DNA of 64,000 nucleotides, taken from positions 1-64,000 of the IMG/VR virus record IMGVR_UViG_3300042569_003487; one strand, 5' to 3'. A model generated the notes under the pieces. It did no database searches. It saw nothing but the letters and a program-made list of their open reading frames with translations, and had not been told where the DNA came from. The position numbers and the translations under genes were made by a program. Positions 2,863-58,514 of the stretch are shown in pieces (positions within the stretch are counted from its first letter, which is position 1; each line of letters begins with the position of its first letter). The DNA is from a virus.

Positions 2863-3288
2863 ATGAACAAGATTAAATCGTTTAATGAATACCTAGTAGA
2901 GTCTGCTGATATAGCTCAGCTTGCTCAAGACCTAGGTGGTACAGTAGAACCTGTAGAGGGCCAGACAGACTGGTCAGCAGTTAGAGGTTATCTAGATGTT
3001 AACCGTGAAAAACTTAAAGAAACCCTTATAAAGATAACTGGTGATAGAATAACTGCAATGGTAGTTATTAAGGTTGCCGATATCTATGCTGAAGACAAGC
3101 GTGATGGGGTAACTCCAAATCCAGACTGGTTAGGAGAAGCTCCAATTGTAGATGAAAACACGCCAGATCTACAAGAAATGGTTAAGGTGGTTATTGCGGC
3201 TATTCAGCGTAATCTAGCTAAATCAGATCAAGCTACCCTTGCTAAGTTGAGTACTGCAGGTAAAGGGATTAAAACCAGCCGTTATTAA
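2863..3288 (+). CDS. putative internal head protein with CTS-like leader
   Basis: N-terminus MNKIKSFNEYLVE-S; ATAAATA at 2832. Confidence 0.55.
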   Translation: MNKIKSFNEYLVESADIAQLAQDLGGTVEPVEGQTDWSAVRGYLDVNREKLKETLIKITGDRITAMVVIKVADIYAEDKRDGVTPNPDWLGEAPIVDENTPDLQEMVKVVIAAIQRNLAKSDQATLAKLSTAGKGIKTSRY

Positions 3289-3291
3289 CCT

Positions 3292-3795
3292 GTGAAGTAT
3301 ATTAAACCCTATCGACTAGTAGAATCCGCAGATCCTTTCTGGACAGGCTATGAAAGACTTGTTGATCTAGGTATGATTGATATTGAAGACTGGGTCAAGA
3401 TTAAAGATGATGTTGTCCTACTCGTTAAGGAGAGGCTGGCTAGTCACTATCCTGAATTGGATGTAGAGAAACTTGCATTTGATGAGATCCGTATCTATCA
3501 AAAGGGTAAAGGCGGCAGAGATCCTTATTATAGTGTCTATATTGATAAAGGCGTTAACCATAGTTATAAATTATGGAATTGTCGCTTAATAGTTCGTTTT
3601 CAAAACGCAACTGGCAGAGCTGACAGTAGTCGTCTTATTAAGGTACCCGATTATTTCTGGACCCGACCAATCGGAGGCTATGCAGATATTCCCGATACAG
3701 TAGCACAAAGTAAGTGGATAGCTGACGAAATTATTGGGTGGATGGAAGAGGTCTTTGTACCATGGATCGGCGTTGAAGTAAAAGAACAGGACTAA
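3292..3795 (+). CDS. putative internal head protein (CTS-like leader, RLxDLG motif)
   Basis: MKYIKPYRLVE-S and ERLVDLGMI; GTG start. Confidence 0.55.
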   Translation: MKYIKPYRLVESADPFWTGYERLVDLGMIDIEDWVKIKDDVVLLVKERLASHYPELDVEKLAFDEIRIYQKGKGGRDPYYSVYIDKGVNHSYKLWNCRLIVRFQNATGRADSSRLIKVPDYFWTRPIGGYADIPDTVAQSKWIADEIIGWMEEVFVPWIGVEVKEQD

Positions 3796-3797
3796 TT

Positions 3798-4403
3798 ATG
3801 AAGTATATCACTAAATTTAGATTATGGGAATCTCAAGAAGAGGTTGATACGGCTAAACGTCTCCTAGACCTAGGCCTAATGGAACCCCAAGATTATAAAC
3901 AAAAATTACGGGAGCTTGGTTGGGACAAGCGGTATCGTAGCCAATTTGTTGAAAACCTTGAAAAGCTATTTGTGGATCTAGGTTTGGAATGGAAAAACTG
4001 GGCAACCGATCGTCAAAAAGCAAACGGTACTGTACTCCTTAAATTTAGTCCAGCTGATGCAGCCGAGTTAATCTTTACTGCAACAGTACCCCCAGGTTTA
4101 ACACCACGTCAAGAGGCCCGATTCCAGAATATTAAGGAACGTCTCCTAAAGGTAAAGCGTGAAATGGAAATGGATGTGGAAGTTAGAGGCCGACTTGCCT
4201 TTGAATACTGGATTTTCCCAGGCTCATTCCGCCCAAGCGGTCACTTTGGCGAACCTACCTCTAGCCAAACTGTTAATTTTGATGGTTCCACTGATCCTCA
4301 ACACTCAATGGCCAGATTCCTCTACCAAGTTGCTCTTGATGCAGACGCAAAGGGCTGGATCTGGAATCCTCAGCACCCCCACTATAATTTTGCACGTCGC
4401 TAA
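3798..4403 (+). CDS. putative internal head protein (CTS-like leader, RLxDLGL motif); likely paralog of 10390..11019
   Basis: MKYITKFRLWE-S, KRLLDLGLM, TDRQKANGT. Confidence 0.55.
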   Translation: MKYITKFRLWESQEEVDTAKRLLDLGLMEPQDYKQKLRELGWDKRYRSQFVENLEKLFVDLGLEWKNWATDRQKANGTVLLKFSPADAAELIFTATVPPGLTPRQEARFQNIKERLLKVKREMEMDVEVRGRLAFEYWIFPGSFRPSGHFGEPTSSQTVNFDGSTDPQHSMARFLYQVALDADAKGWIWNPQHPHYNFARR

Positions 4404-4461
4404 CCTTTGGCCTCAACCCCCTGGCGCGGGGCGCAATCGGGCGAATCTGTTGTAACTGCCT

Positions 4462-4489
4462 AAAAAAAGAGATCCGGGGATCTCTCTTT
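4462..4489. terminator. bidirectional terminator
   Basis: AAAAAAAGAGATCC-GG-GGATCTCTCTTT between convergent genes. Confidence 0.7.
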
Positions 4490-4507
4490 AAATTAAATTA
4501 GTCTCTA

Positions 4508-5173
4508 TTAAGCTTGGTGAACTGGTAACTTTGTGTTATTCACTGTCCAATTATCATCAGTAAACATTTTCTCAACATCAGCAATACTTTTCTCGCTGTG
4601 CGTTCTCCAAAAATCAACAATAGTTTTACCTTCAGTTGCCTCTTTATTAAAGGTAATTTCACCATGACCCCAAACGTCTCCTTTATCAAATCCTAACCAT
4701 TTCATTAATTTAAATGCAGCTAGCACCTGTACTGGCAATACATCTGAATCATTTGACGCAATTACCTCAACCCCTTGAGCAGTATCATTTTCAAGATCAG
4801 ATGGCGCGCCAGGCTTACGGTCTTTTTTTGCAGTACCTGCATGCCATGCAGTTAAGCCTTCTGGAAAAGTTCTAAACACCTTGCCTTCGCGATCAATAAC
4901 CCACTGTACGCCAAGATTACGATTATTTAGAATATCCACTACATCTTCAGCTTTACCTCGACCTGCAGTATGGTGAACAACAAAATATTTTTCCTTGTTT
5001 TTCATTGGACGTAGAGAGGATTGGTGTGCAGTATCAGATAAATCTTCAATGTCACCCTCAAACTCTTTAAACTCTGTGTTATCTGAGCCAAATGAAGATT
5101 TAGCAGCAACTCCGGTAAATAGTTGCGCAACATCGCTCAACCAACCTTCAAATAATTTTACGTGCTTAGCCAT
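4508..5173 (-). CDS. N-acetylmuramoyl-L-alanine amidase (Amidase_2 type) with CTS-like leader
   Basis: Zn-amidase motifs VVHHTAG, AWHAG, GVEV and GHGE; leader MAKHVKLFE-G; ATAAATA at 5195-5201. Confidence 0.8.
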   Translation of the reverse strand: MAKHVKLFEGWLSDVAQLFTGVAAKSSFGSDNTEFKEFEGDIEDLSDTAHQSSLRPMKNKEKYFVVHHTAGRGKAEDVVDILNNRNLGVQWVIDREGKVFRTFPEGLTAWHAGTAKKDRKPGAPSDLENDTAQGVEVIASNDSDVLPVQVLAAFKLMKWLGFDKGDVWGHGEITFNKEATEGKTIVDFWRTHSEKSIADVEKMFTDDNWTVNNTKLPVHQA

Positions 5174-5208
5174 TTTTAATTTGCTATTTCTTGTTATTTA
5201 TCCAAAGA

Positions 5209-5484: not shown

Positions 5485-5542
5485 ATATTTAGATTTTATT
5501 GTAGTCTTATACAAGAAACCAGCTAAACAGATTTGAGTACAA

Positions 5543-5549
5543 ATAAATA
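5543..5549 (+). promoter_or_regulatory. ATAAATA late-promoter class (T4 TATAAATA-like), representative site
   Basis: ATAAATA just upstream of structural or CTS-leader genes. Plus strand: 2832, 5543, 9658, 10362, 15855, 16734, 19455, 25131, 56943. Minus strand: 5195, 23731, 24292, 34614, 38845, 42602, 46147, 49576, 56367, 59150, 60141, 63872. Confidence 0.7.
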
Positions 5550-5572
5550 ACTACAAATAAACTTAAAATTTA

Positions 5573-7165
5573 ATGGAAATTAAAAGATACCAAAATTGGT
5601 TATTTGAAAAGCAAAATCCAAAAAGCGATTGTGGCTGTTCAAACCATGGTTTTATTACTGAAAGTATTAGCTATGATGAGGTTATGGCAAACCATAATGA
5701 ATTAAATTCACAGCCGATTACCGAGGCAGGAACCCCAACTGACCCGTTTGTTGCAGGAAAGGGCGGAAGCTCTGGCGATATATTATGTCTTTATGCAGCT
5801 GGATTCTATTCAGTAGACCACACTGATGCCAAAGGTAAAACCTTTACTAATTCTGCCAAATTTAAGCCAATTATTGATAAAATGATTGCGTTTCTTAAGG
5901 CTGAACCTAAAAAATCATGGGTTTCTGAAGTAGTTATTAGGTCTAGCGAATCGATTGTTCCAAACTTTGATATGGAAAAGCAAACTGGAGCAAAAAAGAT
6001 TGGATGGCTATCAGAACAACGCAAACAAAAGATTCAAGCCTATGTTAATGGAATAATTCAACCATTAGTGGCAGATGGAACTGTTTCTAAATTGCCAACA
6101 GTTAAACTTATTTTCGAAGAGGCTAAAACCTTAACTGAACCATCTGGTGGTTGGGATAACTATCGAGCTTGGAATAAGGAAACTGACCCTGTCAAAAAAG
6201 CGGCACTGCCAAACCATGCAGAGTATTCTAAACTAAAGCAAGGTTATGATGCTGATCAAAAAACGACTGTTCAATTTAGAGTAATTCAAGATTTAGGTGC
6301 TGCCCAATGTACAGTTGGAGTTAGAATTGTAGTTAGTTACGACGATCCAAAAAATATTGGTCATGGCTGTAATTTTGCAAATTATGAAATAACTGCAAAT
6401 GGTATTCCATTAACCACAGCTGGTTCAAGTGGAGCTGGACTTCCTGGACAATCAGTTGGCGGTTGGATTCCAAAGGGAACTGCCTATGCAAGTATGAGTA
6501 ATAGCCAAGAGAATGGTGATGTTCTTTATAAGAGCGGTGCAAAGGACGCAACTTCTGGTGGTGTACGAAAAAATTTCTTTTGGCTTCACGACACAGCATT
6601 AATTAAGCGTATTGTCGCGGCAGGAGATGGAAAGTCTATAATTCTTAGAGCAAAGTGTATAGTAAATGGAGCAGGATTTGGAGGCAAGGGTGGCTGTCAT
6701 AGTGATGCACCACACGTATATGTATACTTATCAAATGGAACGCTAGCCAAAGGGTTTGAACCAAGTGATGCACATATAACTTTAAGAAATGGAGGAACTT
6801 ATCCTAAAACAAATGACGGTGTAATTGCTGAATTGGATCTATGTGGAAACAATAGAGTTGCACAAACTGCGGCTGTAGCAAGTAGCGAAAAGACAAAGGG
6901 CGCTGCACAAACTGGTCCAAAATTAACTGGAGTTAAATTATCATTTGCTGCAAAAAAGGTTGGAACATTAAACTCTGAACAAGCTCTTCAAAATTTAATG
7001 AGTAACGGCTCCGTTACTAAGCGTGCAGATAACACATATTTAGTAAATAAGGACTTTACTGCAGGTGAAGGTGATGTTAAATATATGACTGGCGATATTA
7101 TTAATAAAATTTTACCAAAGGGATCAGCCGTAACCAGACCTGCTACGCCAAACGCTCCAAAATAA
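5573..7165 (+). CDS. large Gly/Cys-rich virion-associated protein with CTS-like leader; possible OmpA-C-like segment
   Basis: MEIKRYQNWLFE-K plus further ITE-S/ITE-A sites; SSESIVPN...WLSEQRKQKIQAYV weakly resembles OmpA-C. Confidence 0.45.
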   Translation: MEIKRYQNWLFEKQNPKSDCGCSNHGFITESISYDEVMANHNELNSQPITEAGTPTDPFVAGKGGSSGDILCLYAAGFYSVDHTDAKGKTFTNSAKFKPIIDKMIAFLKAEPKKSWVSEVVIRSSESIVPNFDMEKQTGAKKIGWLSEQRKQKIQAYVNGIIQPLVADGTVSKLPTVKLIFEEAKTLTEPSGGWDNYRAWNKETDPVKKAALPNHAEYSKLKQGYDADQKTTVQFRVIQDLGAAQCTVGVRIVVSYDDPKNIGHGCNFANYEITANGIPLTTAGSSGAGLPGQSVGGWIPKGTAYASMSNSQENGDVLYKSGAKDATSGGVRKNFFWLHDTALIKRIVAAGDGKSIILRAKCIVNGAGFGGKGGCHSDAPHVYVYLSNGTLAKGFEPSDAHITLRNGGTYPKTNDGVIAELDLCGNNRVAQTAAVASSEKTKGAAQTGPKLTGVKLSFAAKKVGTLNSEQALQNLMSNGSVTKRADNTYLVNKDFTAGEGDVKYMTGDIINKILPKGSAVTRPATPNAPK

Positions 7166-7187
7166 TTAAAGCGAATCTACTTTATAC

Positions 7188-7216: not shown

Positions 7217-7235
7217 TTGTTATTTAGAGTTTACT

Positions 7236-7664: not shown

Positions 7665-7699
7665 ATTAAATCTCCTTTAGTTTAAATTTAATATACTAA

Positions 7700-9692: not shown

Positions 9693-10103
9693 ATGAAATA
9701 CGCTAAACCCTTTACTCAATTTATAAGTGAAGCTCGAGCAGATATGACGCCAACTGAATTGGAAATGCTGGATAGAATCGAAGCTAGAACTAGAGAAGCT
9801 TATCCTGAAACCTCGCCTGACGAAAAGAAAATTGACTCCAGACTTAGAGACCTAGGTCTTGCTCCTAAAGAAGAGTTCGATGACCGTTGGGATAATATGG
9901 TCGACGAGTGGGGTAGTGATCCTGAAATTAGCCGCGCAATTGATGTACTTAAGTCTCGTACAAGTGCAATCATGAACAAATACATTGACTATGGCGATCC
10001 AGAAGATGAGGCCAATTACGATCAGCGTAGAGAATGGATTTGGGAAGCTTCAATCGATGATATTGGATTCTTAGAATTTATGATTGCCCAAGGCGATATC
10101 TAA
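9693..10103 (+). CDS. acidic putative internal head protein (CTS-like leader, RLRDLGL)
   Basis: MKYAKPFTQFISE-A and SRLRDLGLAP; ATAAATA at 9658. Confidence 0.6.
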   Translation: MKYAKPFTQFISEARADMTPTELEMLDRIEARTREAYPETSPDEKKIDSRLRDLGLAPKEEFDDRWDNMVDEWGSDPEISRAIDVLKSRTSAIMNKYIDYGDPEDEANYDQRREWIWEASIDDIGFLEFMIAQGDI

Positions 10104-10318: not shown

Positions 10319-10389
10319 AATTCTATTATACCTAATCTCTGGTAAAGAGTATTAGATCTGGATAAATAACTACAAATAAGATATACTTA

Positions 10390-11019
10390 ATGTCATACTT
10401 CAAAAAATTTGGTGAATTTCTTAATGAAGATGAATCTTCGGAAGAACAATTAGCCAAACTAGCTAGATTAAAGGACCTTGGTTTGCTTGACACAGATCAA
10501 TATAGACAAGATTCCAAGAATATCCGAAAGAATGCAATGCTTGCTGCTAAAGACCGAGGAGACTATGCAGGAACAGCTCTTCCAGAAATTAGAGAAATAT
10601 TAGATTCTCCAGAAGCTCAACTACTAAGGGACAAAGGTCTTGAAGTAGTTTCAAGTCCAACTCAACTCTTAAATGGTACCCTTGTTTGGGCAAAACCTGG
10701 TTATAGAAGATCAGATGGTTGGGGTCTAGGATTTTTTCCTGGCCCAAGTAAAATACGCAGAATGACTCCAAAGGGAATTAATATTGGAGTATGGGGCCGC
10801 AGAGTAGGTTCAATGGATGTTGAAATGAAAGCTATTCCAAAATCAGCATATTCTAATGAGGCTGAATTTTATAGAGTTGCAATGAAGTGGGCAGCTGAAC
10901 ATATCGATTGGGATCAATTAGAAATGGCTGAAAGACAGAGCCGCGAAGCTTGGAGATATTACGTAAAAGGAAAAACAAAACAAGGTTATTTTAACGATGA
11001 GAATAATAGAATCATTTAA
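10390..11019 (+). CDS. putative internal head protein (CTS-like leader, RLKDLGL)
   Basis: MSYFKKFGEFLNE-D, ARLKDLGLL, SPTQLLNGT; ATAAATA at 10362. Confidence 0.6.
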   Translation: MSYFKKFGEFLNEDESSEEQLAKLARLKDLGLLDTDQYRQDSKNIRKNAMLAAKDRGDYAGTALPEIREILDSPEAQLLRDKGLEVVSSPTQLLNGTLVWAKPGYRRSDGWGLGFFPGPSKIRRMTPKGINIGVWGRRVGSMDVEMKAIPKSAYSNEAEFYRVAMKWAAEHIDWDQLEMAERQSREAWRYYVKGKTKQGYFNDENNRII

Positions 11020-12628
11020 TAGCTGGAAACGTTCGGACAGACTCTTAAACGAGAATGTTCAGGCAGCTAAACAATATATGTTAAAACGTTTTGCTCAAGC
11101 AAAAGGAATTGAATCTTCTGAAATTACGCCAGAGGATCAAGCTAGAATTTTTGCAAATGAAGATTATAAAAAAGTTTTACAGTTAATTCAGCCACTTCCT
11201 GGTTATGCATCAACCTTTGTCAAATTTAAATTTGATCATAGAGTTTCATTTGAGCAATTAGCAGAATTGCTTGAGAAAATTAAAGCAAATTCCCAATTTT
11301 TAGGGGAATTATCAATGCCAATTATTGAATTTCCAAATCAAAAGGAAGTAAATGGAGTTTCTCCATTTGAGGCGCTAATAGATGAGTTTAATCAAATTGA
11401 AACCCGTCGTAAAGCAAAATGGATTCTTAACGAATTACCAGGAAATTTACGTAGAGCAGCTAGAGAATTACCAAAAGAAGATCTACAGAGACTTTTTAAT
11501 GCAGCAACTATTATGAATGATTTGGGTCAAGAAGTTAAAGTGCGTTTGTTAAAAAAGGCAAAGGCTTTTACTAATCCAATTGATTTTATAGTTTATGCTG
11601 AAAATTATGTTAAAGGTTACCTAAACTCTGACGTTCAAAGTAAAATTGATAAATTAGAACAATTAGAACCAGAAGGCTCTGTGATTTATGCAGATGATCG
11701 TTACCTAATGTTAAGCGCACGTACAGAAAAGGCGCAAAAGGAATTATGCTCAGTTGCAAACTGGTGTATTAATAGAGGAAGTTTTAATAATAGAGGTTAT
11801 GGTGGAAGCGCTGTACAAATTAATACATTTGATTTTGGTTTACCACCAACTGATCCTCATCACCTAATTGGTACAACTATTTCATATGAAGGAAAGGTTA
11901 CATATAGTCATGATATTAACGATAGGAGTGTTAAGACAACTGATGATATTGCAACACACCTTAAGAAATTTGGTTATCCGGATAAAATGATTAACACCTT
12001 AATTCAGGTTTTTCCAATCGAAGCCATGATTAAAAAGGTAATTACTGAACTTAGCATTGATAAAAAATCTCCGATTCAAGTTCTTGATTCAGTTATTAAA
12101 GCAAGCTATAAAGTAAATCCAGAAGACGATCAAGAATCAGCTAGAGTAATTCTTAATATCCTAATGGAGAGAATTGCACCGGCAGTTAAAGAAGAAGAAA
12201 TTATTGCACTTTACATGAAGTTTGGCGTAATGTCAATTTTCTCTGCTAAACTATTTAATATGTTATTACCTAATATTAATCCTCAAACAAGATCCGAGGT
12301 TATTCAAAATGCAAAGGCGATTCTTGATGAAATTAAAGGTTATGCAAGTACTGGTTTATTTAAATATCCACAATTGCTAAATGCAGTTAAGAGCGAACCT
12401 AAAATTATAGAATTACTTGGTGAAAGTATAGTAAATGAATTTTATGCAGCTGAACCTGCAATTAAAGAACCTACTACAAAACCTAAAGTAACTCCAAGAC
12501 CAGGTCCAATTCCAACTAAAAAACCATCAGTTAACCCTGAACCAAGCGCAACTGCAGAAGATGTAGTTAATGTATTTTTAGCTGAATTAAAAAAATTAGG
12601 TACTACACCAAAGGAATTCCTTAAGTAA
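10997..12628 (+). CDS. large helical protein with CTS-like leader and a WCI (PcfJ-like?) segment
   Basis: MRIIESFNSW...LLNE-N; ELCSVANWCI; Pro/Lys/Thr-rich linker near the C-terminus. Confidence 0.5.
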   Translation: MRIIESFNSWKRSDRLLNENVQAAKQYMLKRFAQAKGIESSEITPEDQARIFANEDYKKVLQLIQPLPGYASTFVKFKFDHRVSFEQLAELLEKIKANSQFLGELSMPIIEFPNQKEVNGVSPFEALIDEFNQIETRRKAKWILNELPGNLRRAARELPKEDLQRLFNAATIMNDLGQEVKVRLLKKAKAFTNPIDFIVYAENYVKGYLNSDVQSKIDKLEQLEPEGSVIYADDRYLMLSARTEKAQKELCSVANWCINRGSFNNRGYGGSAVQINTFDFGLPPTDPHHLIGTTISYEGKVTYSHDINDRSVKTTDDIATHLKKFGYPDKMINTLIQVFPIEAMIKKVITELSIDKKSPIQVLDSVIKASYKVNPEDDQESARVILNILMERIAPAVKEEEIIALYMKFGVMSIFSAKLFNMLLPNINPQTRSEVIQNAKAILDEIKGYASTGLFKYPQLLNAVKSEPKIIELLGESIVNEFYAAEPAIKEPTTKPKVTPRPGPIPTKKPSVNPEPSATAEDVVNVFLAELKKLGTTPKEFLK

Positions 12629-12629: not shown

Positions 12630-13925
12630 ATGAAAACACTAAAACAATTTTTACAAGAGGCAAGTTTACAGGGAAATCCTGGAACACCCGATCAATACCT
12701 AAAGGGAGTTGAACGCAGAGCAATGCAAGATGTTCAAGGAACTGAACAAAGACTTGGAAGAGAAATGAGTCAGTTTATGCAATTTGTTTCTCAAGTGCAA
12801 AGAATGCAAACTCCTCAAGTTAAAGCACAATTAGAAAAACTTGCAGAAGATATTATAATGAAAGAGTACGGATCAATCCTAACTCAAACTAAATTAAGTA
12901 TTAAATTTGCAAAGGCTGGAGAAATCCAACAAATGATGGAAGAGGTTCCTATGGAAACACCAGAACCCCAAAAAGAAATTGAAGATCAGGCAACTATTTC
13001 AAAAATCCATGCTAGAAAAATTGGTAACGCAATTATGCAAGGCGAGGCTAAAAATGCAAAGCGTATGTTAGCTTTACCTGAAACCATGGATGGTATGATT
13101 AAAATTTTTGGACCAGCTGACGCTGCAAAAATGGTAGATCTTCTTAAGAAAATTACAGACATTGCCTCTGCTCTTGATTGGAGAATTCCAATGGAAGTTC
13201 AAAAGCAAATGTGGGAAAGAGATAAAGGCGGATTTAGTGGATCAGTTAAAGTTGATTTTAAACCAGTTGAAGCTGACGAAAAAACTGCAGAGGATCTTAT
13301 TAAATCTCTAGAAAGTGGTGATCTTGAAACTCAAGAAATAGAAGATACTTTAAATGAAATGGAGCCTACTATTACTGCAATTGGTACAGATTTTGCAATG
13401 CTACTTCATGAAGCAATTAAAGGAATCTATAAATTAATTGGAACTGCTTCTATTCCAGATGATGAAGAAGAAGCTGGAAAGGTTGTTGCAAATACTGGAA
13501 CACTTAGTGATGAATTAGAAGATTTAAGATATGGACCCTACTTAGCAGCAGATCTTAGAGATTTTGTAAATCGATTTACCAATTCAAGTTCAGTTGAAAA
13601 TATCAGAGAACACGTTTTTGGAAAATTAATGATTCTTGCAAAAGAGGAAACTCAAGCATTTTTACAATTAATGAAAGAAATTTTTACTGAAGATGCTGGA
13701 GCAATTAATAAAATGAAATCGATTGTTTCAGAAATTGAACAAGAAATTAAGGATTGGGAACGCAGTCAATTTGATGAAGAGGTTCCAGACCTTGGAGTTG
13801 AACCGGCTGCCACTGAAACTGACCCATCTCAATTAAGTAAAAAGGAAATTCAAGCCTTAATTGATGCAGCACTAGATGCTGGAGATTACGCTGAAGTTGG
13901 AAAACTTGCAAAATATTTAGATTAA
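12630..13925 (+). CDS. CTS-leader protein with zincin-like HE motif and C-terminal UVR-like motif
   Basis: MKTLKQFLQE-A, FAMLLHEAIKG, LIDAALDAGDYAEVGKL. Confidence 0.5.
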   Translation: MKTLKQFLQEASLQGNPGTPDQYLKGVERRAMQDVQGTEQRLGREMSQFMQFVSQVQRMQTPQVKAQLEKLAEDIIMKEYGSILTQTKLSIKFAKAGEIQQMMEEVPMETPEPQKEIEDQATISKIHARKIGNAIMQGEAKNAKRMLALPETMDGMIKIFGPADAAKMVDLLKKITDIASALDWRIPMEVQKQMWERDKGGFSGSVKVDFKPVEADEKTAEDLIKSLESGDLETQEIEDTLNEMEPTITAIGTDFAMLLHEAIKGIYKLIGTASIPDDEEEAGKVVANTGTLSDELEDLRYGPYLAADLRDFVNRFTNSSSVENIREHVFGKLMILAKEETQAFLQLMKEIFTEDAGAINKMKSIVSEIEQEIKDWERSQFDEEVPDLGVEPAATETDPSQLSKKEIQALIDAALDAGDYAEVGKLAKYLD

Positions 13926-13926: not shown

Positions 13927-14583
13927 ATGAAAATTCAAAGATTTAAACAATTTATAAATGAAAGCGAGGAATATCTCGATGAACCTGCAAAAGAAATGTT
14001 TAATGAGCTTCTAACTCAAATTGCAGATGAAATAGACGGTCAATCTGGCTGGATGGCTTCTGTAAATGAAAACTCTAGTACCCTACGTATTGACCAAGAT
14101 TGGAATATTGATGATTTAAACTATGAAGGCGATGAGCCTAGAGTTTATGCAAGTTATACTGCAACCTTTAAAATTGCTTTTCAAGATGATTCAACTCAAT
14201 TATCCCCAGAAGTAGTTAGACTTTGGAAATTAGGATTAGCGCCAATTACTGAATTAATTAAAGGATTCGATCATATTTGGGGTTTTAGTATTGATTCAAA
14301 GGATGTCCCAGAATTAGATATTCAAGAAGGAAATAGCGAATTTGAGTTTATGTCAATTGAAGATTTGACTGGAGGCGCAACTGCTGATTTAACTGATATT
14401 GAAGCTTTTGCAACTGACTTAATTGAAACTCTTAATGGTTGGTTAGACGAACAAACTTATATGTTACACGATAGAGTTCAAGAAGAATTAGACATGATTT
14501 CTGGTTATGGTGATGACGACGAAGAAGAGGATGACGATGATTATGAAAACGATGATGACGATTTTTCTGAAGACGAAATTTAA
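13927..14583 (+). CDS. very acidic putative internal head protein
   Basis: MKIQRFKQFINE-S, RLWKLGLAP and a poly-D/E tail. Confidence 0.6.
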   Translation: MKIQRFKQFINESEEYLDEPAKEMFNELLTQIADEIDGQSGWMASVNENSSTLRIDQDWNIDDLNYEGDEPRVYASYTATFKIAFQDDSTQLSPEVVRLWKLGLAPITELIKGFDHIWGFSIDSKDVPELDIQEGNSEFEFMSIEDLTGGATADLTDIEAFATDLIETLNGWLDEQTYMLHDRVQEELDMISGYGDDDEEEDDDDYENDDDDFSEDEI

Positions 14584-15889: not shown

Positions 15890-16741
15890 ATGCAAAATAT
15901 GCAAGTTAGACAATTTACAGACTGGTTAGGCGAAGCAGTGGCTCCAGCAAAGACTTATACAAAAAAGCTTTCTGAGCTTAATCCGCAGCGAAAATACATT
16001 GGAGATACCTATAATACAGATCTTTTTTTAAGATTTAAACACCTGGCTTCAATTAGAGACAAACATGGAAAAAGAATTGGTGTTGAGAAATGGTTTGAAC
16101 TTGCCCAACTTGAAGATAAGGGATTCTATTCTGCTGTATTGGCTGACCAAATGGGACAGCCCGATGTTCGCGAACTTTGGAGAGATATGATGGGCAGAAA
16201 TGCAAGTAAAGTTAAAGGTCAAGTTAATTTTAAAGATCCATTTAAAGGGAACGAAGATACTGAAGATGAAGTTAGAGATTTAAGTCTAAGTGAAAGCGTT
16301 GAAGAACCTATTACAATGCAGTCAAATCTAGATTCAACTTGGACTTTAGTTATTACTTATCCAAATGATTCATTATATGCTAAAGCTCAGCCATACTTTG
16401 AAAAGCTTGGAATTGCATTTGCAAATTTGGCAACCCAAACTGTTTATTTTGATGGATCGGAAGTAAGCGAAGCCTATTTCACAAAGGATCATATGCTTGC
16501 AGTTGAAGCACATGAAATTGGACACTCTATTGCAAATCATCAAGGGGAACCGTATTATTCTAAAAGACAGGAACAAGAAGCAGACTTTATTGGAATCAAT
16601 TTGCTAATTCAAAATTCTTTAACTAAAGCTGCAAATATTCTAGCAGAAAGATTCTCAAATCATTATAATATTGAATATACAAAACTGGCTGATTCTGAAC
16701 AACTTACTGAACTACTAGAAGATTACTTACTAGATAAATAA
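15890..16741 (+). CDS. CTS-leader protein with C-terminal zinc metalloprotease (M48-like)
   Basis: MQVRQFTDWLGE-A; AHEIGH...QEQEAD; ATAAATA at 15855. Confidence 0.65.
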   Translation: MQNMQVRQFTDWLGEAVAPAKTYTKKLSELNPQRKYIGDTYNTDLFLRFKHLASIRDKHGKRIGVEKWFELAQLEDKGFYSAVLADQMGQPDVRELWRDMMGRNASKVKGQVNFKDPFKGNEDTEDEVRDLSLSESVEEPITMQSNLDSTWTLVITYPNDSLYAKAQPYFEKLGIAFANLATQTVYFDGSEVSEAYFTKDHMLAVEAHEIGHSIANHQGEPYYSKRQEQEADFIGINLLIQNSLTKAANILAERFSNHYNIEYTKLADSEQLTELLEDYLLDK

Positions 16742-19484: not shown

Positions 19485-21299
19485 ATGCACAAATCATTCC
19501 TAGACCTAGTATTAGAGTCAAATCAGATTGAGGAAATGGCCCTAAAGCCAGAAGATTTTCCAGACACCTATCTCAAAAAGGCAAAGGATCGTCAAGCTAT
19601 CGCTAGAGAAATTGCTCCACTTGCTAAACAGTTTCAAGAAGCTTTAGTTAATTTAAATTGGAGAGAAATTACTTGGTCAACTAGAGGAAGTAACTATTAT
19701 CCAATCTTACCTGCTCCAATTTTGGCAATTTATGCTGAAGCAAAAGGTAAAATTGGTGGAACTGGCGATTCATTTATTAATAATTATATGAATAACAATT
19801 TTGGTAAATGGGCTGATGCAAATAACCAAAGTGACTGTATTCATATGGAAGTAGACTCAAGCGGTCGTTCACACTTTCCAGGCGGAGGAATTCCAAGTTC
19901 GCTTAGAGGAGCTAGACTTGGTTATAAGTTGTATAGAGGTCTTCTTGAACAAAAGAAATGGTTAAAATCAAATACTGCTGGGACACTAGAAAAAGATAAT
20001 GCTTGGGCATCTTTAATTTCTCCAAAATTAAATGCAGATGGATCGCTTAGCGATGATGATGTACATGCAATTCTTGGACCAGACTGTGTGTTTGCAATGG
20101 TTAAAACAATATCTAATGATCAAAAAATTAGATTTGCAACAAGTTTCCTAGATAATAATATTAGTTATAGTTCAGTTAATACCAGAAATTTTGGAATTGA
20201 TGATGAACTTAAAGCAATTTTGCCAGCTGAGCTGATGTCAAGGTTTGACCCAGCCGAGCGTGAACGTCTTGAAAGAGAACGTCGAGAAAGAGAACAAAGG
20301 GAACAGGCCGAAAGGGCACGTCAATATGGGATTGATCGAGGAATTCAATGGGAAGATCAGCCTGAAGTCGGAGACCTTGTTTATGTTAGAAACTATGCTG
20401 CAAATAGAGACACCAGTATTCCAATGAGAATTATTGTTGGTGAAAGAGGCGGAAGTGTTTACGCTATAAACCTTGTACATTTCCTAATGTGGAGAGATCA
20501 ACTAAATTCTGATATGAGCGAACTTGGTGGATTTGATACTAGAAGCTGTTCTAATAATCCTCAATCAATTAAAGAATATTTTGTTAAAGTAGATCCTGCA
20601 CAAATTCCAGGTTTAGAAGAAGATTCAACAGTTGTTCGTAGTAGATATTCAACGTCAGAATGGCAACAAGTTAAAGATCTTATCTTAAGTATGGTTGATC
20701 CAGAACTTGCAGCTAGAATGAGAGCAGAACGCGAAGAAAGAGAACGTACAGAAAGAGAAGAGCGTGAAAGAGCTGAAGCAGAAAGACAAGCTCAACGCGC
20801 ACAAAATGAAGAAAGATTTGGACCAAGTGTAGATAATTTCCAAGATGCCCAGTATAAAGAGGCGATAGACGGCCGTAACCCTGGCGGAACTTATATTGCT
20901 AAAATATTTAAGAGAGGCCAAATTACAGATATTGCACTTTCACCAGATCAACTAGATAGATTTAACAGAAGAAAATCAACTCCAGTATTTTTACCAGCAA
21001 GAAATGCTTATTGGAATTCAATAAATGGATTTAAGATCGATGAACCAATTGATGGATTGGGACTTACTAGATTCCGTTTAGAAAGATTTGATAGCAAACG
21101 AGCAACTACTCCAAATGAAATGCTTTATATTGCATCACATAATACTTATTATGGTTTAGTTGCGCCAGTTGATTATTTTGTATTCAATCAATCAAGAAAC
21201 GAAGAATACATTTACCTAAGAGTGTTTGATAACACTACCGGTAGAGCAAGAAAAATTGCAATTAAGGTTGCAGCTCTAAGAAAAATTGTTGCTTATTAA
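19485..21299 (+). CDS. multidomain CTS-leader protein with N-terminal GNAT acetyltransferase domain
   Basis: MHKSFLDLVLE-S; IPSSLRGARLGYKLY (GNAT motif A) followed by S...T...AWASL; two R/E-rich helical linkers; ATAAATA at 19455. Confidence 0.6.
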   Translation: MHKSFLDLVLESNQIEEMALKPEDFPDTYLKKAKDRQAIAREIAPLAKQFQEALVNLNWREITWSTRGSNYYPILPAPILAIYAEAKGKIGGTGDSFINNYMNNNFGKWADANNQSDCIHMEVDSSGRSHFPGGGIPSSLRGARLGYKLYRGLLEQKKWLKSNTAGTLEKDNAWASLISPKLNADGSLSDDDVHAILGPDCVFAMVKTISNDQKIRFATSFLDNNISYSSVNTRNFGIDDELKAILPAELMSRFDPAERERLERERREREQREQAERARQYGIDRGIQWEDQPEVGDLVYVRNYAANRDTSIPMRIIVGERGGSVYAINLVHFLMWRDQLNSDMSELGGFDTRSCSNNPQSIKEYFVKVDPAQIPGLEEDSTVVRSRYSTSEWQQVKDLILSMVDPELAARMRAEREERERTEREERERAEAERQAQRAQNEERFGPSVDNFQDAQYKEAIDGRNPGGTYIAKIFKRGQITDIALSPDQLDRFNRRKSTPVFLPARNAYWNSINGFKIDEPIDGLGLTRFRLERFDSKRATTPNEMLYIASHNTYYGLVAPVDYFVFNQSRNEEYIYLRVFDNTTGRARKIAIKVAALRKIVAY

Positions 21300-22051: not shown

Positions 22052-22650
22052 TTTAATTCTTCTATCTTGTCAATCATCCAATCGGCGTTGACGGGTTTAT
22101 AACCTGTTATACACGCACAAGCTGACATAGTTCCCGCTAATGGGTGAACGTGAGCGTGTGAGTGTCCATATAAGTGATAGGCTCCACGATATTTACCATT
22201 CCATTCGTAAAGAGGATAGTGAAATAGGACAAATCTTTTAAGACCCCATTCGCTGTCATCTTTAACCATGATTTCTTTGTAGTTTGTAAATTCTACAATA
22301 TCCATTATTGCGCTTAAATTATAGAGCCATGCTTGATCTATGTGAAGATCATGGTTTCCAATAATCCAGTGAACTTTTCCAGGAAGTTTTCCAAACTTTC
22401 CTAGGTTTTCACGAATGTGTTTGAATTTAGTTCTCTCCATTGCAAGATCACCTAAGAAAAAAACATGATCATCCGGTCCTACCGTTTCATGCCAGTTTTT
22501 GGCAATTGCATGATCGTGTTCTTTTATATCAGAAAAGTTGTGTAAGCCTTGTTCGAATCGTAAGACATTTCCATGTCCTATGTGTAAATCGCTAATGAAC
22601 CAAGTTGTGGCTCTGTCAAATGTGTTTTCTGTACTAAATATTTGTTCCAT
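22021..22650 (-). CDS. calcineurin-like metallophosphoesterase
   Basis: SDLH, LGD, GNHD, HYP, GHSH. Confidence 0.9.
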   Translation of the reverse strand: MEQIFSTENTFDRATTWFISDLHIGHGNVLRFEQGLHNFSDIKEHDHAIAKNWHETVGPDDHVFFLGDLAMERTKFKHIRENLGKFGKLPGKVHWIIGNHDLHIDQAWLYNLSAIMDIVEFTNYKEIMVKDDSEWGLKRFVLFHYPLYEWNGKYRGAYHLYGHSHAHVHPLAGTMSACACITGYKPVNADWMIDKIEELKCKLETQSSE

Positions 22651-23710
22651 CTAATAGTTTATTACTAACATACTCGAATGCAGTTTCAGCGTCGTGCATT
22701 ACTTTATCTTTCTGTTGGTTAGCTAAATCAGTTAAGGCTTTATCGTATTTAGATGAGGTTCTGTGTTTATGTAGTTTTTGTGCATAGATCTTAACAACCT
22801 CTTCTAAAAATTCCTTTGAACTATTATACTTAAAATTTGGTAAATCGTATGTACCAGTTTTTTCAAGAGTTCTGGCAAATCCTAAAATTCCATTACAGAT
22901 TTGTTCAAGTGAAAGTTGAGTTACATCAATTCCAGGGTGTTCATTTAGATAATCATCAATTACAAGTTCGCGTTTAGTACCTGCAAACTCATCAACAAAT
23001 TCTGCAAGGTGAAGAATAAATTTAGAAAAATCTCTAGTAATAATTTTTTCTTCAACGTCTTTGCGCATATTAGGTCCAACTAATTCGCCATTCTTAATTT
23101 TAGCAACAACTCCACGATCTGTAACTGAAACATCAAGCGCATTACCAAATGATTGATATAGGAACCCTACAACAAATCCTTTTACACCTCTAATTGGAGT
23201 ATATCTAGATTTTGCCCATTCTGCAGAATAGGTAAAAGTTGGAATAATATCTACCTGAACTGGGCCGTCTTTTAAATTAATTACAAGTTTAAGACTACCG
23301 TCAGAAATTGCATCGCTTTCTTCTGCATCAATTTCGGGTTGGGGATTTTCTTGAATCCACTTTAACATAAGTTGATTGTACTCTTTCATTGTATCAATTT
23401 CAACTCTCCTTGATTGAGGTTCAGTTAAAGGATATTCAACTAAAATATCAACATCACCATATGCTTTATCTGGGTTTTCTGTCATGTCTTGTTTAAAATA
23501 AACACCAGATCCACCTGGACCGAGCACTTTTAGTGGAGCCATTTCTAGTGACTTTGCGTACTTATTAAATTTAGAAAAAATCATTTCTAAAACTGAGACA
23601 GATTCTTCCAGCACAGCTGGCGTAATTTTAGTCCCCTGAGTTTTTGTGGTTGCCCAACCTCCCATTTCCTGTATTTTTAAAAATCCTTGAAAAGATTCAA
23701 TAATTCTCAC
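22634..23710 (-). CDS. Pol-beta-superfamily nucleotidyltransferase with CTS-like leader
   Basis: GGSG...YGDVDIL...VQVDII; leader MRIIESFQGFLKIQE-M; ATAAATA at 23731. Confidence 0.65.
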   Translation of the reverse strand: MRIIESFQGFLKIQEMGGWATTKTQGTKITPAVLEESVSVLEMIFSKFNKYAKSLEMAPLKVLGPGGSGVYFKQDMTENPDKAYGDVDILVEYPLTEPQSRRVEIDTMKEYNQLMLKWIQENPQPEIDAEESDAISDGSLKLVINLKDGPVQVDIIPTFTYSAEWAKSRYTPIRGVKGFVVGFLYQSFGNALDVSVTDRGVVAKIKNGELVGPNMRKDVEEKIITRDFSKFILHLAEFVDEFAGTKRELVIDDYLNEHPGIDVTQLSLEQICNGILGFARTLEKTGTYDLPNFKYNSSKEFLEEVVKIYAQKLHKHRTSSKYDKALTDLANQQKDKVMHDAETAFEYVSNKLLDGTNI

Positions 23711-23729
23711 TGTAATTAAGTAATTTTAG

Positions 23730-24287
23730 TTATTTATCGAAACCTAGCTTCTTTAGCTCTGCAATAGTTTCCTTGGCACTAGTATGTAAAATGCCAGTTC
23801 CACCGGCTGCAATCCAAGCATCAAGTTTCTTTGGCGTATCATCAATTAAAATATCCTGAGGCCCTGTTGCAAATTCAAATTTGTTACCATAGAAAATAGT
23901 CTTTTCTTTACCTGTCCAGTCTTCCTTTTTTGTAATATATGGAAAATCCCAATTTAAATTTTTCTTAAGCCATTTAGCTTTACCGGTAATTGACTTTGGA
24001 TCAAGCGACGGTGAAGATAAGATAGTTGGGTTAAACTTTCTAATAAAAGACCAAAGGTCAATACCATCAGTCATCCATTCCATGCCTGCCCAAAATGCCT
24101 CGCCGGCTTTTCCAACAAGTTTCCAACTTGCATTTTTTGAATATTCCCTTTGAAATTCTTCGATAGTCATGCCAGCTTCCTTTTCAAACTGGGAATCCCA
24201 ATCTGAAAGTACTCCATCCATGTCGCAAAAGATTCTCATTGGTTGAACACTCTCGTTAAATTGTGTGTATAGCTTAATGTGTTGCAT
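23730..24287 (-). CDS. HAD-family 5'(3')-nucleotidase with CTS-like leader
   Basis: FCDMDGVL, LSSP, LIDD; leader MQHIKLYTQFNE-S. Confidence 0.85.
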   Translation of the reverse strand: MQHIKLYTQFNESVQPMRIFCDMDGVLSDWDSQFEKEAGMTIEEFQREYSKNASWKLVGKAGEAFWAGMEWMTDGIDLWSFIRKFNPTILSSPSLDPKSITGKAKWLKKNLNWDFPYITKKEDWTGKEKTIFYGNKFEFATGPQDILIDDTPKKLDAWIAAGGTGILHTSAKETIAELKKLGFDK

Positions 24288-24294
24288 ATTATAT

Positions 24295-25095
24295 TTATTG
24301 TTGTAGACTTGGAACCCAATGTGTAGTTCTGCCGTCTGCTGTTTTTTCTCTAATTACTATATTTCCATGAGGATCTGCACTCTTTCCATAGACTTCAAAT
24401 TCAAAAACAAAGTCGCCAGTTTCACCAGTAACTTGTTGATAATTTCTAATACTTGCTCCGCCCTGTGCATATGACGCCCTACTAATTAATTTAGAATAGT
24501 CCCATAGTAATTGAATCTCATTATCGGTAAGATCCTTAACCAATCTATGCGGGGAAATCTTAGAACGATATAACATTTCACATTTAATATAGTTTCCAAT
24601 TCCTGCAAAAAGCCTCTGGTCCATTAGCGCTTCTACAACAGTTTTATTTGGAACCCTCTCGAATGATCTAATCGTATTATAAACAGATGCAGTTGTGTCG
24701 TTTAGCGCATCAACTCCTAGGGTTTTTAATTTTGCGTCCAATTCAACCTTACTTGCAAACTTAAGGGTACCGAATCGGCGCTGATCAATAAAAAACAGTT
24801 CAAGACCATCATCAAATGAAAGTTTAATGTGTGCATGTGGTTTTTGATAGATTGACCAAAACCCGCTCATTCCCAATGTAATCCAGATAGACATGGCGCC
24901 TTCCAATTCTAACCAGATGAATTTGCCTTTAACTCCGCCTCCAACTACCTCCAGGGGCAGCTCCAGGGCTCCCAGGCCAACTGGGGGAGTCTTTAAGAAG
25001 CGTCCACCAAGTATTTCTACACTAGTTAGTTTTCTATTAATACAATAATTTCGCAAACCTTCATATACGCGTCTGCACTCTGGTCCTTCTGGCAT
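24295..25095 (-). CDS. mutM: Fpg/Nei DNA glycosylase/AP lyase (no zinc finger)
   Basis: MPEGPE N-terminus, GKF, LGMSG, DQRRFG, H2TH motif GIGNY; ends in DGRTTHW with no Cys4 finger. Confidence 0.9.
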   Translation of the reverse strand: MPEGPECRRVYEGLRNYCINRKLTSVEILGGRFLKTPPVGLGALELPLEVVGGGVKGKFIWLELEGAMSIWITLGMSGFWSIYQKPHAHIKLSFDDGLELFFIDQRRFGTLKFASKVELDAKLKTLGVDALNDTTASVYNTIRSFERVPNKTVVEALMDQRLFAGIGNYIKCEMLYRSKISPHRLVKDLTDNEIQLLWDYSKLISRASYAQGGASIRNYQQVTGETGDFVFEFEVYGKSADPHGNIVIREKTADGRTTHWVPSLQQ

Positions 25096-25160
25096 ATCCT
25101 ATTTTTTGATATTATACCCAATTCGCGCAAATAAATAACTACAAAATAGATCTATTTAAA

Positions 25161-54422: not shown

Positions 54423-54428
54423 TGGACT

Positions 54429-54674: not shown

Positions 54675-54675
54675 A

Positions 54676-56346: not shown

Positions 56347-56454
56347 TTTGGCGAATTCTTTTTTGTTATTTATTAGGGATAATTGCGACTTGGAAAAATT
56401 TTACCTTCGCTCTAGACCAAATAGATAATTCTTTAGTATTATACTAAGAAATAT

Positions 56455-56921
56455 GGGGCTGTTTTGGCGTTTGACAAGCGGTCGTAGTTCTTTGAATGCA
56501 GGCGGAGTTAGTATTGGAAACTCCTTAATAACCTATACGAATAATAACTGACAATAAGTCAACTTGGACTTTCGAAGACGCTATGTCTTTCGTAGGTGCT
56601 GATTTAGCAGTAGCTGCCTAATCGCTCCCGTATCACTCATGGGACTTTAATAAGAAGTGAAAGCTAAATCCAGGTGGCTCCCTTAATAGTCAAGGCTGAC
56701 CTTGAGCATCTGATCGTAGTCGATCTATACAGGGGGCGAAAGAGTTGGAGTAACAGGTCGGAGCTCTACTAAATAATTTCGAGACCAGGTTGTTTTTCTG
56801 ATGGGTTTCCCACATACATCAAATCAGATATTTTGTCCAATTTAGAAAAAATGGACTAAGCCTGTGAATGAATTCATTGAAGTAGCCGGATTGGACACGG
56901 GTTCGACTCCCGTCAGCTCCA
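56455..56921 (+). ncRNA. ssrA: tmRNA, tag (A)DNKSTWTFEDAMSFVGADLAVAA
   Basis: GGGGCTG/CAGCTCC-A acceptor stem with G3.U70; T-arm ACGGG-TTCGACT-CCCGT; tag ORF 56550-56621 after ATAACT, ending AA-stop; CCA not encoded. Confidence 0.92.
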
Positions 56922-56955
56922 CTACTGTATTTTTCTAGGTGAATAAATAACCTAT

Positions 56956-57711
56956 ATGAAGAATACAAATACACAGGATATATTCCTTCGTAATCTTACA
57001 ATCTCTTTACTTGATCTATTAAATAGACAGTTAGAGATTGAGATGTGGCGCGACGATCGCCCAGAGATTCACACAATCCCTTTTTACTTTAATCAAGGAA
57101 CCGATGAGGGATTTATGCAAGATTTCTTTATAGGAATCCCATCTACTTGTAAAATTTCACAATTGGCTGAGGGTAATTATGATCCAATTCCTAGAGGAAT
57201 AATCACACTAAGCTCATTTAATGTAAAATCTTCAGATCTTGTAAACAAATATGTTAGAGGAACTTTTCAGCGAGATGAATTTGATGAAAACGATACAAAG
57301 AAAAGTAAAGCCTATTCGGCTAGACTCTATTCGCTTCCTCTTAAAGTAAGCTTTGATGCAAAAATTATTGTTGATAATCTTAATAAAACATTTAAGGCAA
57401 CTGAAAAGTTATTTGATCTTTTCTACAGTAATCGAGTAATGTACTTTCAATATAGAGGAATCCGGATCCCTGCTCTATTTGTTTTTCCAGATCAGGCAAC
57501 CAATGATAAAGCTTATAAATTTTCATATACTGACAATAATAAAATAACAATTTCTTTCAGCATTGAAATCGAAACTTACTTTCCTAGCTTTGATAAGACT
57601 ACTGAGATGTTTAGAGGAAACGTTATTGATCAAATTTTAACAAAAACAATTGATAAAGATTCTGGCCAATTGGATGGTAAATCTTGGATTGATAATAATA
57701 ACCCGCAATAA
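56956..57711 (+). CDS. tail sheath stabilizer/terminator (T4 gp15-like)
   Basis: IPFYF...IPRG...LPLKVSFDAKI pattern; late promoter. Confidence 0.6.
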   Translation: MKNTNTQDIFLRNLTISLLDLLNRQLEIEMWRDDRPEIHTIPFYFNQGTDEGFMQDFFIGIPSTCKISQLAEGNYDPIPRGIITLSSFNVKSSDLVNKYVRGTFQRDEFDENDTKKSKAYSARLYSLPLKVSFDAKIIVDNLNKTFKATEKLFDLFYSNRVMYFQYRGIRIPALFVFPDQATNDKAYKFSYTDNNKITISFSIEIETYFPSFDKTTEMFRGNVIDQILTKTIDKDSGQLDGKSWIDNNNPQ

Positions 57712-58514
57712 TGAAATATCTATTAGAATATAAAACTTTTATCTTATCTGAGGGAGGTAATGCTTTTCCAGAAACAGTATCTGTTAAAAGAGAAGATATT
57801 CAAAGAATTGTTAAAGAGTTTAATGATAGAGTAGTCCAGGGGATACTCGGAAGCCAGCCTGGTGAACCAATTGGTAGCTGGAAACAGAAACCTATTTCAG
57901 GAGATATTGATTGCCTGGTATACACAGATTTAGAACTGCCTAAGATTGTTGAACTGTGTAAAGCTCAAGGAATTGATGCTAAAGCTTTTTATGGTTTTAA
58001 TATTGTTTCAACTAAGTTTGAACCAACTGATCATGAACCTGTTCAAATTGATATTTTCGTAAGACCAGATTCTGCAAATAAAGAGGCAACAGATATTTTC
58101 TATAAAAATATTGAAGAGGATCCCGATACTACAAAACACCGTGTCTATTTCCTATTTACAATTTTAGATTCGCGAAAAGAAGATATCGAAGGAGACTCTG
58201 CACAACCTTCTAAATTTACAGGTTATATGTTAAGACCAGATGGTCTCTATAAGATTGTAAAAGAGATGAAGAAGGTAAATTATAAAATCATGGATCGTCA
58301 GCTAATAGCTGAAACTGGCGAAGATATGGCAAAGGCAATTTTTGGAGAAGCCTTACCATTTAGTGAATGGAATACCTTTAAGAAAACATTTGATCTTTTC
58401 ATGAAGTCGCCACTCTATCCAAATAAACAGGATATTGTTATGGCTTATATTGAGAAATTAAAAGAAGAAGGTTTACCGTTTCCGACTAGTGTTAAACTAG
58501 ATTCTTACGTTTAA
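57711..58514 (+). CDS. Pol-beta-superfamily nucleotidyltransferase with CTS-like leader
   Basis: MKYLLEYKTFILSE-GGNAF; IGS...SGDIDCL...VQIDIF. Confidence 0.7.
   Translation: MKYLLEYKTFILSEGGNAFPETVSVKREDIQRIVKEFNDRVVQGILGSQPGEPIGSWKQKPISGDIDCLVYTDLELPKIVELCKAQGIDAKAFYGFNIVSTKFEPTDHEPVQIDIFVRPDSANKEATDIFYKNIEEDPDTTKHRVYFLFTILDSRKEDIEGDSAQPSKFTGYMLRPDGLYKIVKEMKKVNYKIMDRQLIAETGEDMAKAIFGEALPFSEWNTFKKTFDLFMKSPLYPNKQDIVMAYIEKLKEEGLPFPTSVKLDSYV

Follow-up and report, generated by a model that had tools for sequence, protein, structure and literature searches.

A T4-like candidate capsid-targeting leader on unrelated late proteins of an uncultured phage

The DNA analysed here, which we call the window, is the first 64 kb (64,000 nucleotides) of a 141,925-bp IMG/VR virus contig (G000; record IMGVR_UViG_3300042569_003487), estimated by CheckV to be 55% complete. 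Along this stretch, a series of genes encode proteins that start with the same kind of short leader, reminiscent of the capsid-targeting sequence (CTS) of the phage T4 internal proteins (IPs); this leader and the proteins that carry it are the subject of the present analysis. The contig has a GC content of about 35%, and a Shine-Dalgarno (SD)-like core is found in only 10 of its 139 genes. Two promoter types are present, GTATAAT-like early boxes and T4-style ATAAATA late boxes, the latter 16-28 nt upstream of most late starts. The terminase and the head protease (see below for the latter) are nearest to those of huge uncultured phages, Prevotella Lak phages, Sphingomonas phage PAU and Flavobacterium phages, and a megablast search of the structural region against GenBank phages returned no match. 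We take the phage as a distant jumbo phage of the T4 superfamily, whose host is probably a member of the Bacteroidota.

An earlier note on this DNA had proposed that about 20 proteins share the leader and had listed 19 N-termini. All 19 are present and read as claimed; six lie on the minus strand, where the gene start is the high coordinate (5173, 23710, 24287, 32791, 34597 and 36287), and two start with GTG (3292 and 23710). About 17 members are supported, but two, 32987-34597 and 34617-36287, probably owe their resemblance to chance. The leaders were scored with a position matrix spanning -9 to +2 around the Glu (position 0), every leader being excluded when it was scored itself. At a threshold of at least 8 bits, 12 of the 139 contig N-termini were retained, compared to 8 of 2615 internal windows (0.3%), an enrichment of about 28-fold. 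Strong members in the window are 2863, 5573, 9693, 10390, 12630, 13927, 15890, 19485 and 32309, and two further strong leaders lie past it (125384, plus strand, and 129975, minus strand). Eight others (3292, 3798, 4508, 10997, 22634, 23730, 25161 and 57711) are weak by the matrix alone (4-6.4 bits or less) and were kept because their leaders are conserved in a sister genome or their junctions are conserved in protein families. Altogether, leader-bearing genes represent about one in eight on the contig (17-21 of 139 open reading frames, ORFs). An additional ORF at the contig edge, 2-277 (-), which runs off the contig, starts with MKTKKDRLWLVE/L (here and below, a slash marks the predicted cleavage site), scores 8.3 bits and has a conserved counterpart in the sister genome; it may be another leader protein, and has no late box within 70 nt.

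Alignment of 21 leaders was anchored on the Glu, which is therefore not an independent test. The informative columns are -6 (F in 9, L in 3 and Y in 2 of the 21), -3 (W, F, Y or L in 13), -2 and the Glu itself, plus a Lys at -8. Position -2 is hydrophobic in all 21 leaders (L, I or V in 20), with no instance of A, S or G, and position +1 is S, A or G in 14. These conserved residues are encoded by varied synonymous codons, and thus selection acts on the protein. In agreement with the earlier note, which had described the downstream domains as unrelated, no pairwise BLAST match was found between the 21 mature parts at E<0.01, and their recognisable domains differ (Amidase_2, NUDIX, NT5C and a nucleotidyltransferase fold). 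The shared start does not therefore come from paralogy, which we ruled out as its origin on this basis. The leaders do not resemble Sec, Tat or lipoprotein signal peptides, as no hydrophobic core of about seven or more residues was found; hydrophobic runs do not exceed 3 residues, and each leader contains 2-7 charged residues.

The leaders had also been tied to the ATAAATA box, and this association is largely borne out, with enrichment and co-occurrence both evident in the proteome scan: ATAAATA units hold 18 of 20 strong scorers, compared to 60 of the 119 other genes (Fisher p=0.001), the count of 20 being somewhat inflated because the matrix used in this test contains the window's own leaders. 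The association is not perfect, as the box of the NT5C gene (23730) is ambiguous and one leader-like N-terminus occurs in an early unit. This sole case, 59224-59673 (-), lies behind an early-type TAGTATAAG box, yet starts with MKNLKVKLFE/I (8.1 bits), and this start is conserved in the sister genome.

Gene 2863-3288 (+) encodes a 141-aa protein of unknown function with the leader MNKIKSFNEYLVE/S (10.7 bits), behind an ATAAATA box at 2832-2838; its sister orthologue starts with MNRIKRFSEYLVE/A. In the same operon, 3292-3795 (+; 167 aa) begins at a GTG with (M)KYIKPYRLVE/S (5.5 bits), while its sister orthologue has another leader, MKHIRLYKDFITE/E, and an additional module ahead of the shared domain. 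The protein of 3798-4403 (+; 201 aa) reads MKYITKFRLWE/S (5.6 bits), and its sister orthologue, MKYLKPYRLFE/S, reaches 9.4 bits. Gene 10390-11019 (+; 209 aa) has the leader MSYFKKFGEFLNE/D (9.5 bits) and a box at 10362-10368. Just past the leader, the proteins of 3292-3795, 3798-4403 and 10390-11019 display an RLxDLG-type motif, (A/E)RLxDLG(L/M)(I/L/M)xxxD(W/Y), which resembles a SHOCT-like oligomerisation motif and has no Pfam match.

Four kinds of recognisable function occur among the cargo, amidase, NUDIX, NT5C nucleotidase and nucleotidyltransferase fold, the rest being largely orphans; most cargo proteins had no match in Pfam or PHROG, even with the E threshold relaxed to 5. The amidase, 4508-5173 (-; 221 aa; MAKHVKLFE/G; box 5195-5201), carries an N-acetylmuramoyl-L-alanine amidase domain (Pfam Amidase_2, 7e-11 over residues 61-173) and matches PHROG amidase/endolysin families; its sister orthologue, MPQHIKLFE/S, scores 8.8 bits. 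The NUDIX hydrolase, 32309-32791 (-; 160 aa; Pfam NUDIX 3.7e-14, residues 20-142), starts with MIFTFTDYLAE/S (10.3 bits). The NT5C-type HAD nucleotidase, 23730-24287 (-; 185 aa), starts with MQHIKLYTQFNE/SVQP followed by M-RIFCDMDG, and is 34% identical (E=1e-25) to an annotated 5'-3' deoxyribonucleotidase of Flavobacterium phage immuto. Its ATAAATA box overlaps an ATATAAT-like word (24288-24298; also 23711-23737), and the gene upstream, 24295-25095, has an early promoter and an Fpg/Nei-like start, MPEGPECRR; judging from these boxes, the NT5C gene may be made both early and late. The nucleotidyltransferase-fold enzyme, 22634-23710 (-; 358 aa), begins at a GTG with (M)RIIESFQGFLKIQE/MGGW and contains an invariant GS...GDxD...D signature; its AlphaFold model (pLDDT 93) matches CD-NTase, Pol beta/lambda (Pol X) and cGAS in Foldseek (E 3e-4 to 5e-3). 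A second, probably nucleotidyltransferase-like protein judging from its sequence motif is encoded by 57711-58514 (+; 267 aa; MKYLLEYKTFILSE/GGNAF): aligned with an immuto protein that has no leader, its mature GGNAF falls at residue 2 of the latter (MGGNVF), and the alignment runs through a GS...GDID motif.

Among the other cargo proteins, three small ones are very acidic: 9693-10103 (+; 136 aa; MKYAKPFTQFISE/A, 8.4 bits; 27% D+E), 13927-14583 (+; 218 aa; MKIQRFKQFINE/S, 11.5 bits; 29% D+E, pI 4.1) and 25161-25592 (+; 143 aa; MIYNFKDFVTKVDE/N, 5.0 bits; box 25131-25137), the last extremely so (37% D+E). The leader of 25161 is identical in the sister genome, and the sister gene of 9693 has only its C-terminal part in common, behind another leader, MKALKFKQFLNE/G. 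The 530-aa protein of 5573-7165 (+; MEIKRYQNWLFE/K, 8.8 bits; box 5543-5549) has no Pfam, PHROG or PDB match and retains its leader despite only 59% identity to its sister orthologue. Likewise, no family was found by Pfam and PDB sequence search for 10997-12628 (+; 543 aa), which has a long leader, MRIIESFNSW...LLNE/N (6.3 bits); the sister orthologue has LLTE/N and scores 10.5 bits. Nearest of all to T4 IPIII is the leader of 12630-13925 (+; 431 aa), MKTLKQFLQE/AS (8.4 bits). Gene 15890-16741 (+; 283 aa) starts with M(QN)MQVRQFTDWLGE/A and scores 9.6 bits, or 13.8 from the second Met; it has a weak metallopeptidase-like match (Peptidase_M48, E=0.0015, below the Pfam cut-off), and the PDB sequence search gave only one weak, uninformative match. 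Finally, 19485-21299 (+; 604 aa) starts with MHKSFLDLVLE/S (8.1 bits), followed by a second site, IEE/M. No Pfam match was obtained for this protein, and the ESM Atlas returned none for it or for 12630. Its model possibly comprises a GNAT-like domain and a tandem SH3/Tudor-like C-terminus; the GNAT reading is weak (Foldseek E ~0.1 and VIA Z ~5 to acetyltransferases, residues 57-228), and one homologue is named RimI-like by JGI.

The homologues of three of these proteins give access to the history of the junction between leader and mature domain. Alignment of 23730 with the immuto enzyme begins only past both leaders, and in both 22634 and 23730 the ancestral Met is found directly after the site. 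A hydrophobic-x-Glu motif occurs in 87 of 94 (93%) distinct N-terminal extensions of 23730 homologues, compared to 28% of control windows, and a few homologues lack any extension. For 19485, a leader of variable sequence ending in hydrophobic-x-Glu is kept in 47 of the 49 listed homologues, usually with a second site a few residues downstream of the first; the remaining two are a fragment and a gene call from an internal Met. The test on the 22634 family is independent of the Glu-anchored alignment: 25 of its 150 representatives start with MGG... exactly at the junction, and 96 others have a Glu directly before the GG, with a hydrophobic residue at -2 in 95 of the 96, compared to 32% for other Glu residues (p=3e-46). 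These 96 junctions lie behind short leaders in 63 cases and within polyproteins of up to 1708 aa in 33. In six metagenomic polyproteins of 840-1708 aa (P0190, P0192, P0197, P0255, P0270 and P0297), the nucleotidyltransferase-fold module is always preceded by hydrophobic-x-Glu/GGW. In the AlphaFold models of 19485 and 22634, the leader is a detached, low-confidence helix ahead of the fold: residues 2-11 of 19485 are helical and 10-18 disordered, and residues 1-15 of 22634 fall below a pLDDT of 50. On these alignments, the predicted leader is an element grafted onto unrelated domains.

A gp21-like protease, which the earlier note had suggested looking for, is encoded by two related records although not by the contig itself. 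The first is the sister genome (G001; 216,815 bp, 84% complete), which has about 80% protein identity to the contig and the same gene order. Its 676-aa protease (G001 156284-158314, equivalent to locus L011:4284-6314 on the minus strand; also L029:10001-12034) matches Peptidase_S77 (2.8e-14), the PHROG head maturation protease (3.5e-35) and the T4 gp21 structure 5jbl (1.4e-4), and is followed by the gene for a T4-type major capsid protein. None of the related loci collected via the protease overlapped the contig directly. A DNA search with the contig end, by contrast, identified G003, a contig whose start overlaps the final 476 bases of the window's contig (97% identity) and which encodes the same protease and capsid protein.

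The protease continues into a fused C-terminal tail of about 460 aa, in which residues 327-452 consist of nine exact 14-residue repeats. Each repeat ends in Y-(S/T)-(E/D)-(Y/H)-(L/I/V)-(A/G)-E and is a near copy of a cargo leader: one reads NVNKNIKYTEYLAE, to be compared with the 2863 leader given above. Elsewhere in the sister proteome, Y-x-x-(Y/H)-(L/I/V)-(A/G)-E is found in only two head-module proteins, as their leader. The repeat ends are predicted cleavage sites, and cutting at all of them would chop the region into 14-mers. The N-terminus of the capsid protein contains three hydrophobic-x-Glu sites, VLE/S, MFE/N and INE/A. Leaders are also abundant in the sister genome, where 19 N-termini reach at least 8 bits and several others do so from alternative starts, or about 20-25 overall; many of these genes have no orthologue on the window's contig, and several lie beside the protease.

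Similar leaders occur in two cultured relatives. Phage PAU (NC_019521), of the same clade by terminase and protease, has 20 ORFs beginning with MK(T/S)(L/I)xxL(Y/F)E, a stereotyped MKTLTQLYE-type leader that differs from the present one in its L-Y/F-E consensus. The depositors' notes in this record name four of the leader ORFs 'internal capsid protein' and one (gp152) 'scaffolding'. The PAU capsid protein is processed, like that proposed here, from a 585-aa precursor to a 520-aa mature form, as determined by N-terminal sequencing (PMC5646251), and its sequence reads ...ALME(64)N(65).... None of the 21 cargo proteins of the contig has a homologue in PAU, although 16 of the 139 contig proteins have one. 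Thus, as far as these comparisons go, the putative loading system is conserved and its cargo is not. In phage immuto (locus L034, NC_055915 104705-145229), the head region encodes several similar leaders, including those of the 5'-3' deoxyribonucleotidase (MKKVMGNLADLLLE/E) and of the major capsid protein (MELNQLFE/G), and a LamG-type fibre trio is held in common with our phage. Literature searches returned no description of large CTS-tagged sets outside T4, nor of the PAU leader set.

The closest functional precedent is T4 itself. The N-terminus of T4 IPIII (NC_000866), MKTYQEFIAE/AS, scores 9.4 bits on this phage's matrix, and its best position is the true cleavage Glu. In the T4 tag, residues 4 and 7 direct targeting and residues 8 and 10 direct processing (Mullaney and Black, reviewed in PMC9026906); these correspond to positions -6, -3, -2 and 0, the same spacing as the conserved columns here. 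As for T4 IPI, IPII, IPIII and Alt (PMC9026906, PMC3012670, PMC5694885), a short N-terminal tag precedes unrelated proteins, the cleavage motif is (L/I)-x-Glu, the lineage has a gp21-family protease and the genes are late, here by promoter motif only. Unlike T4, which has three IPs and a few other processed head proteins, the phage has about 17-21 leaders on a 142-kb partial genome; its cargo includes recognisable enzymes, its protease carries nine leader-like repeats and its host is probably a Bacteroidota. As proposed for the present phage, the jumbo phages phiKZ, 201phi2-1 and SPN3US (S80 protease) have a gp21-related protease that cuts many head proteins after Glu, together with ejected enzymes, but their propeptides are long and dissimilar with a small residue (A/S/G) at -2 (PMC5694885), whereas a short consensus leader is found here. 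The (A/S/G)-x-Glu motif of the phiKZ/SPN3US type does not occur in the 21 leaders, and the lineage protease matches S77, the T4 family. Head loading and delivery of accessory proteins with the DNA, as proposed here, is also known for the Dar anti-restriction proteins of phage P1 (PMC9024508), which rely on a Dar/Hdf hierarchy without a cleavable shared N-terminal tag.

Taken together, the positional match to T4, the gp21-family protease of the lineage, the motif sites in scaffold and capsid proteins, the PAU notes and the three cargo families with conserved junctions make it likely that the leader is a T4-type capsid-targeting propeptide, processed by a gp21-family enzyme, and that the cargo remains in the head until it exits with the DNA. 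The putative system is the known T4 mechanism, here greatly expanded in a jumbo phage lineage distant from T4. In the proposed mechanism, the leader genes would be transcribed late from the T4-style ATAAATA promoters. The leader itself would be an amphipathic helix of 9-19 residues, in which positions -6 and -3 are aromatic or hydrophobic, -2 is Leu, Ile or Val and 0 is Glu; it would lead into a flexible linker, and would dock the protein on the scaffolding core while the prohead assembles. Cleavage after the Glu by the gp21-family (S77) serine protease would follow, and the mature protein would be retained in the head and exit with the DNA at the next infection. The T4-type leader advanced in the earlier note is thus backed by several independent lines, while virion presence, cleavage and the injection of 'effectors' stay at the level of deduction: we infer docking, cleavage, retention in the head, packaging and ejection or injection from sequence, and support for capsid presence, propeptide removal and ejection would come solely from the four PAU depositor notes and from the sequenced N-terminus of the PAU capsid protein.

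Several observations weigh against this interpretation. About half of the claimed leaders score weakly on the matrix alone. The ATAAATA box of the NT5C gene ends 4 nt before the ATG, and this gene follows one with an early promoter. Neither a nucleotidase nor a NUDIX enzyme would be an obvious choice for packaging. The mature length reported for the PAU capsid protein differs by one residue from that expected of a cut after Glu64, and literature searches returned no proteomic, cleavage or packaging data for the phage or its relatives. Finally, neither the protease nor the capsid gene is found on the phage's own 142-kb contig (55% complete), which has no Peptidase_S77 match because it ends about 10 kb short of the head module; since the protease is present in both G001 and G003, the lineage has the enzyme, though it is absent from the phage's own record.

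The strongest alternative accepts a real tag cut by the head protease, but holds that many of its bearers are accessories of the prohead core or scaffold, like T4 gp67, gp68 and gp22, and would be degraded or expelled rather than delivered. Several bearers are indeed small, very acidic and devoid of an enzyme domain (13927, 25161 and 9693), many leader genes of the sister genome and of PAU lie within the head module, beside the protease, and the PAU 'scaffolding' gp152 carries the same leader. However, the mature parts show no excess of internal cleavage motifs (0 to 1.3 per 100 aa, compared to 0.46 for the proteome), folded enzymes such as NUDIX, amidase, NT5C and the nucleotidyltransferase fold would make poor scaffolds, and the PAU record names four bearers internal capsid proteins. 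We therefore regard this alternative as unlikely for the set, although degradation as parts of the prohead core may be the fate of some small acidic members.

Far less probable is that hydrophobic-x-Glu serves only as a zymogen switch, the protein being activated or inactivated by cleavage, with no role in capsid targeting. The junction is the best-conserved feature and the leader sequence upstream varies across lineages, as a simple switch would have it, but T4-type prohead proteases work inside the prohead, so that the substrate must be there (PMC5694885), and positions -6 and -3, which in T4 serve targeting and not cutting, are conserved here too. Chance, or a feature of the mRNA or translation start of late genes without an SD (A-rich codons after the ATG), fits with the scarcity of SD-like cores, the frequency of MK starts and the two claimed members within noise, but is refuted for the core set by the enrichment over internal windows, the synonymous codons at conserved residues and the 33 junctions conserved deep in polyproteins, where translation initiation is irrelevant, and deserves hardly any credence. 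Equally remote is a recognition tag for a modifying enzyme such as a radical-SAM maturase, a reading rejected since Radical_SAM (PF04055) has no match in G000 or G001 (both incomplete) and matches all 14 control genomes, and the tag is degenerate, not a fixed 16-mer, and ends in a protease motif common to scaffold and capsid protein.

Returning to the capsid-targeting propeptide, the nine leader-like repeats of the protease tail make mimicry of one scaffold repeat the likeliest docking mode. A fuller scenario, which we put forward only tentatively, is that the leader is one copy of the scaffold repeat, and that the cargo co-assembles with the protease-scaffold tail and is freed by the same cuts that dismantle it. 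The set, with two nucleotidyltransferase-fold proteins, a NUDIX hydrolase, an NT5C nucleotidase, possibly a GNAT protein and very acidic small proteins, would then be an injected kit acting before phage gene expression, for instance against nucleotide-signal or restriction defences. Such repeats suggest a concrete docking mechanism for capsid targeting, which is poorly understood even in T4. If this repeat reading is true, the 'injected proteome' of many environmental T4-like phages would be readable by a sequence rule; more generally, should such a rule hold, a short hydrophobic-x-Glu leader and a gp21-type protease would allow prediction of head cargo in uncultured phages of the T4 superfamily. 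That most cargo has no known family and turns over completely between relatives is the behaviour of arms-race accessory genes. The present set would thus provide a ranked list of candidate counter-defence or take-over proteins injected by Bacteroidota phages, and the leader a natural tag by which such phages could be loaded with foreign proteins.

Some further features complete the description of the contig. The two doubtful members, 32987-34597 (-; 536 aa; MKKIKSISILLE/Q, 4.3 bits) and 34617-36287 (-; 556 aa; MKNYTSLNQLILE/A, 5.0 bits), have scores within noise and no orthologue in the sister genome; the former is fibre- or spike-like, with a Peptidase_S74 fibre chaperone domain at its C-terminus. 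Beyond the window, the phage apparently encodes GroEL-like (G000 114679-116271, plus strand) and GroES-like (129009-129323, plus strand) chaperonins, judged solely from N-terminal sequence. In the sister genome, a DnaJ-like gene with an early box upstream lies in the middle of the head module (G001 158385-159239).

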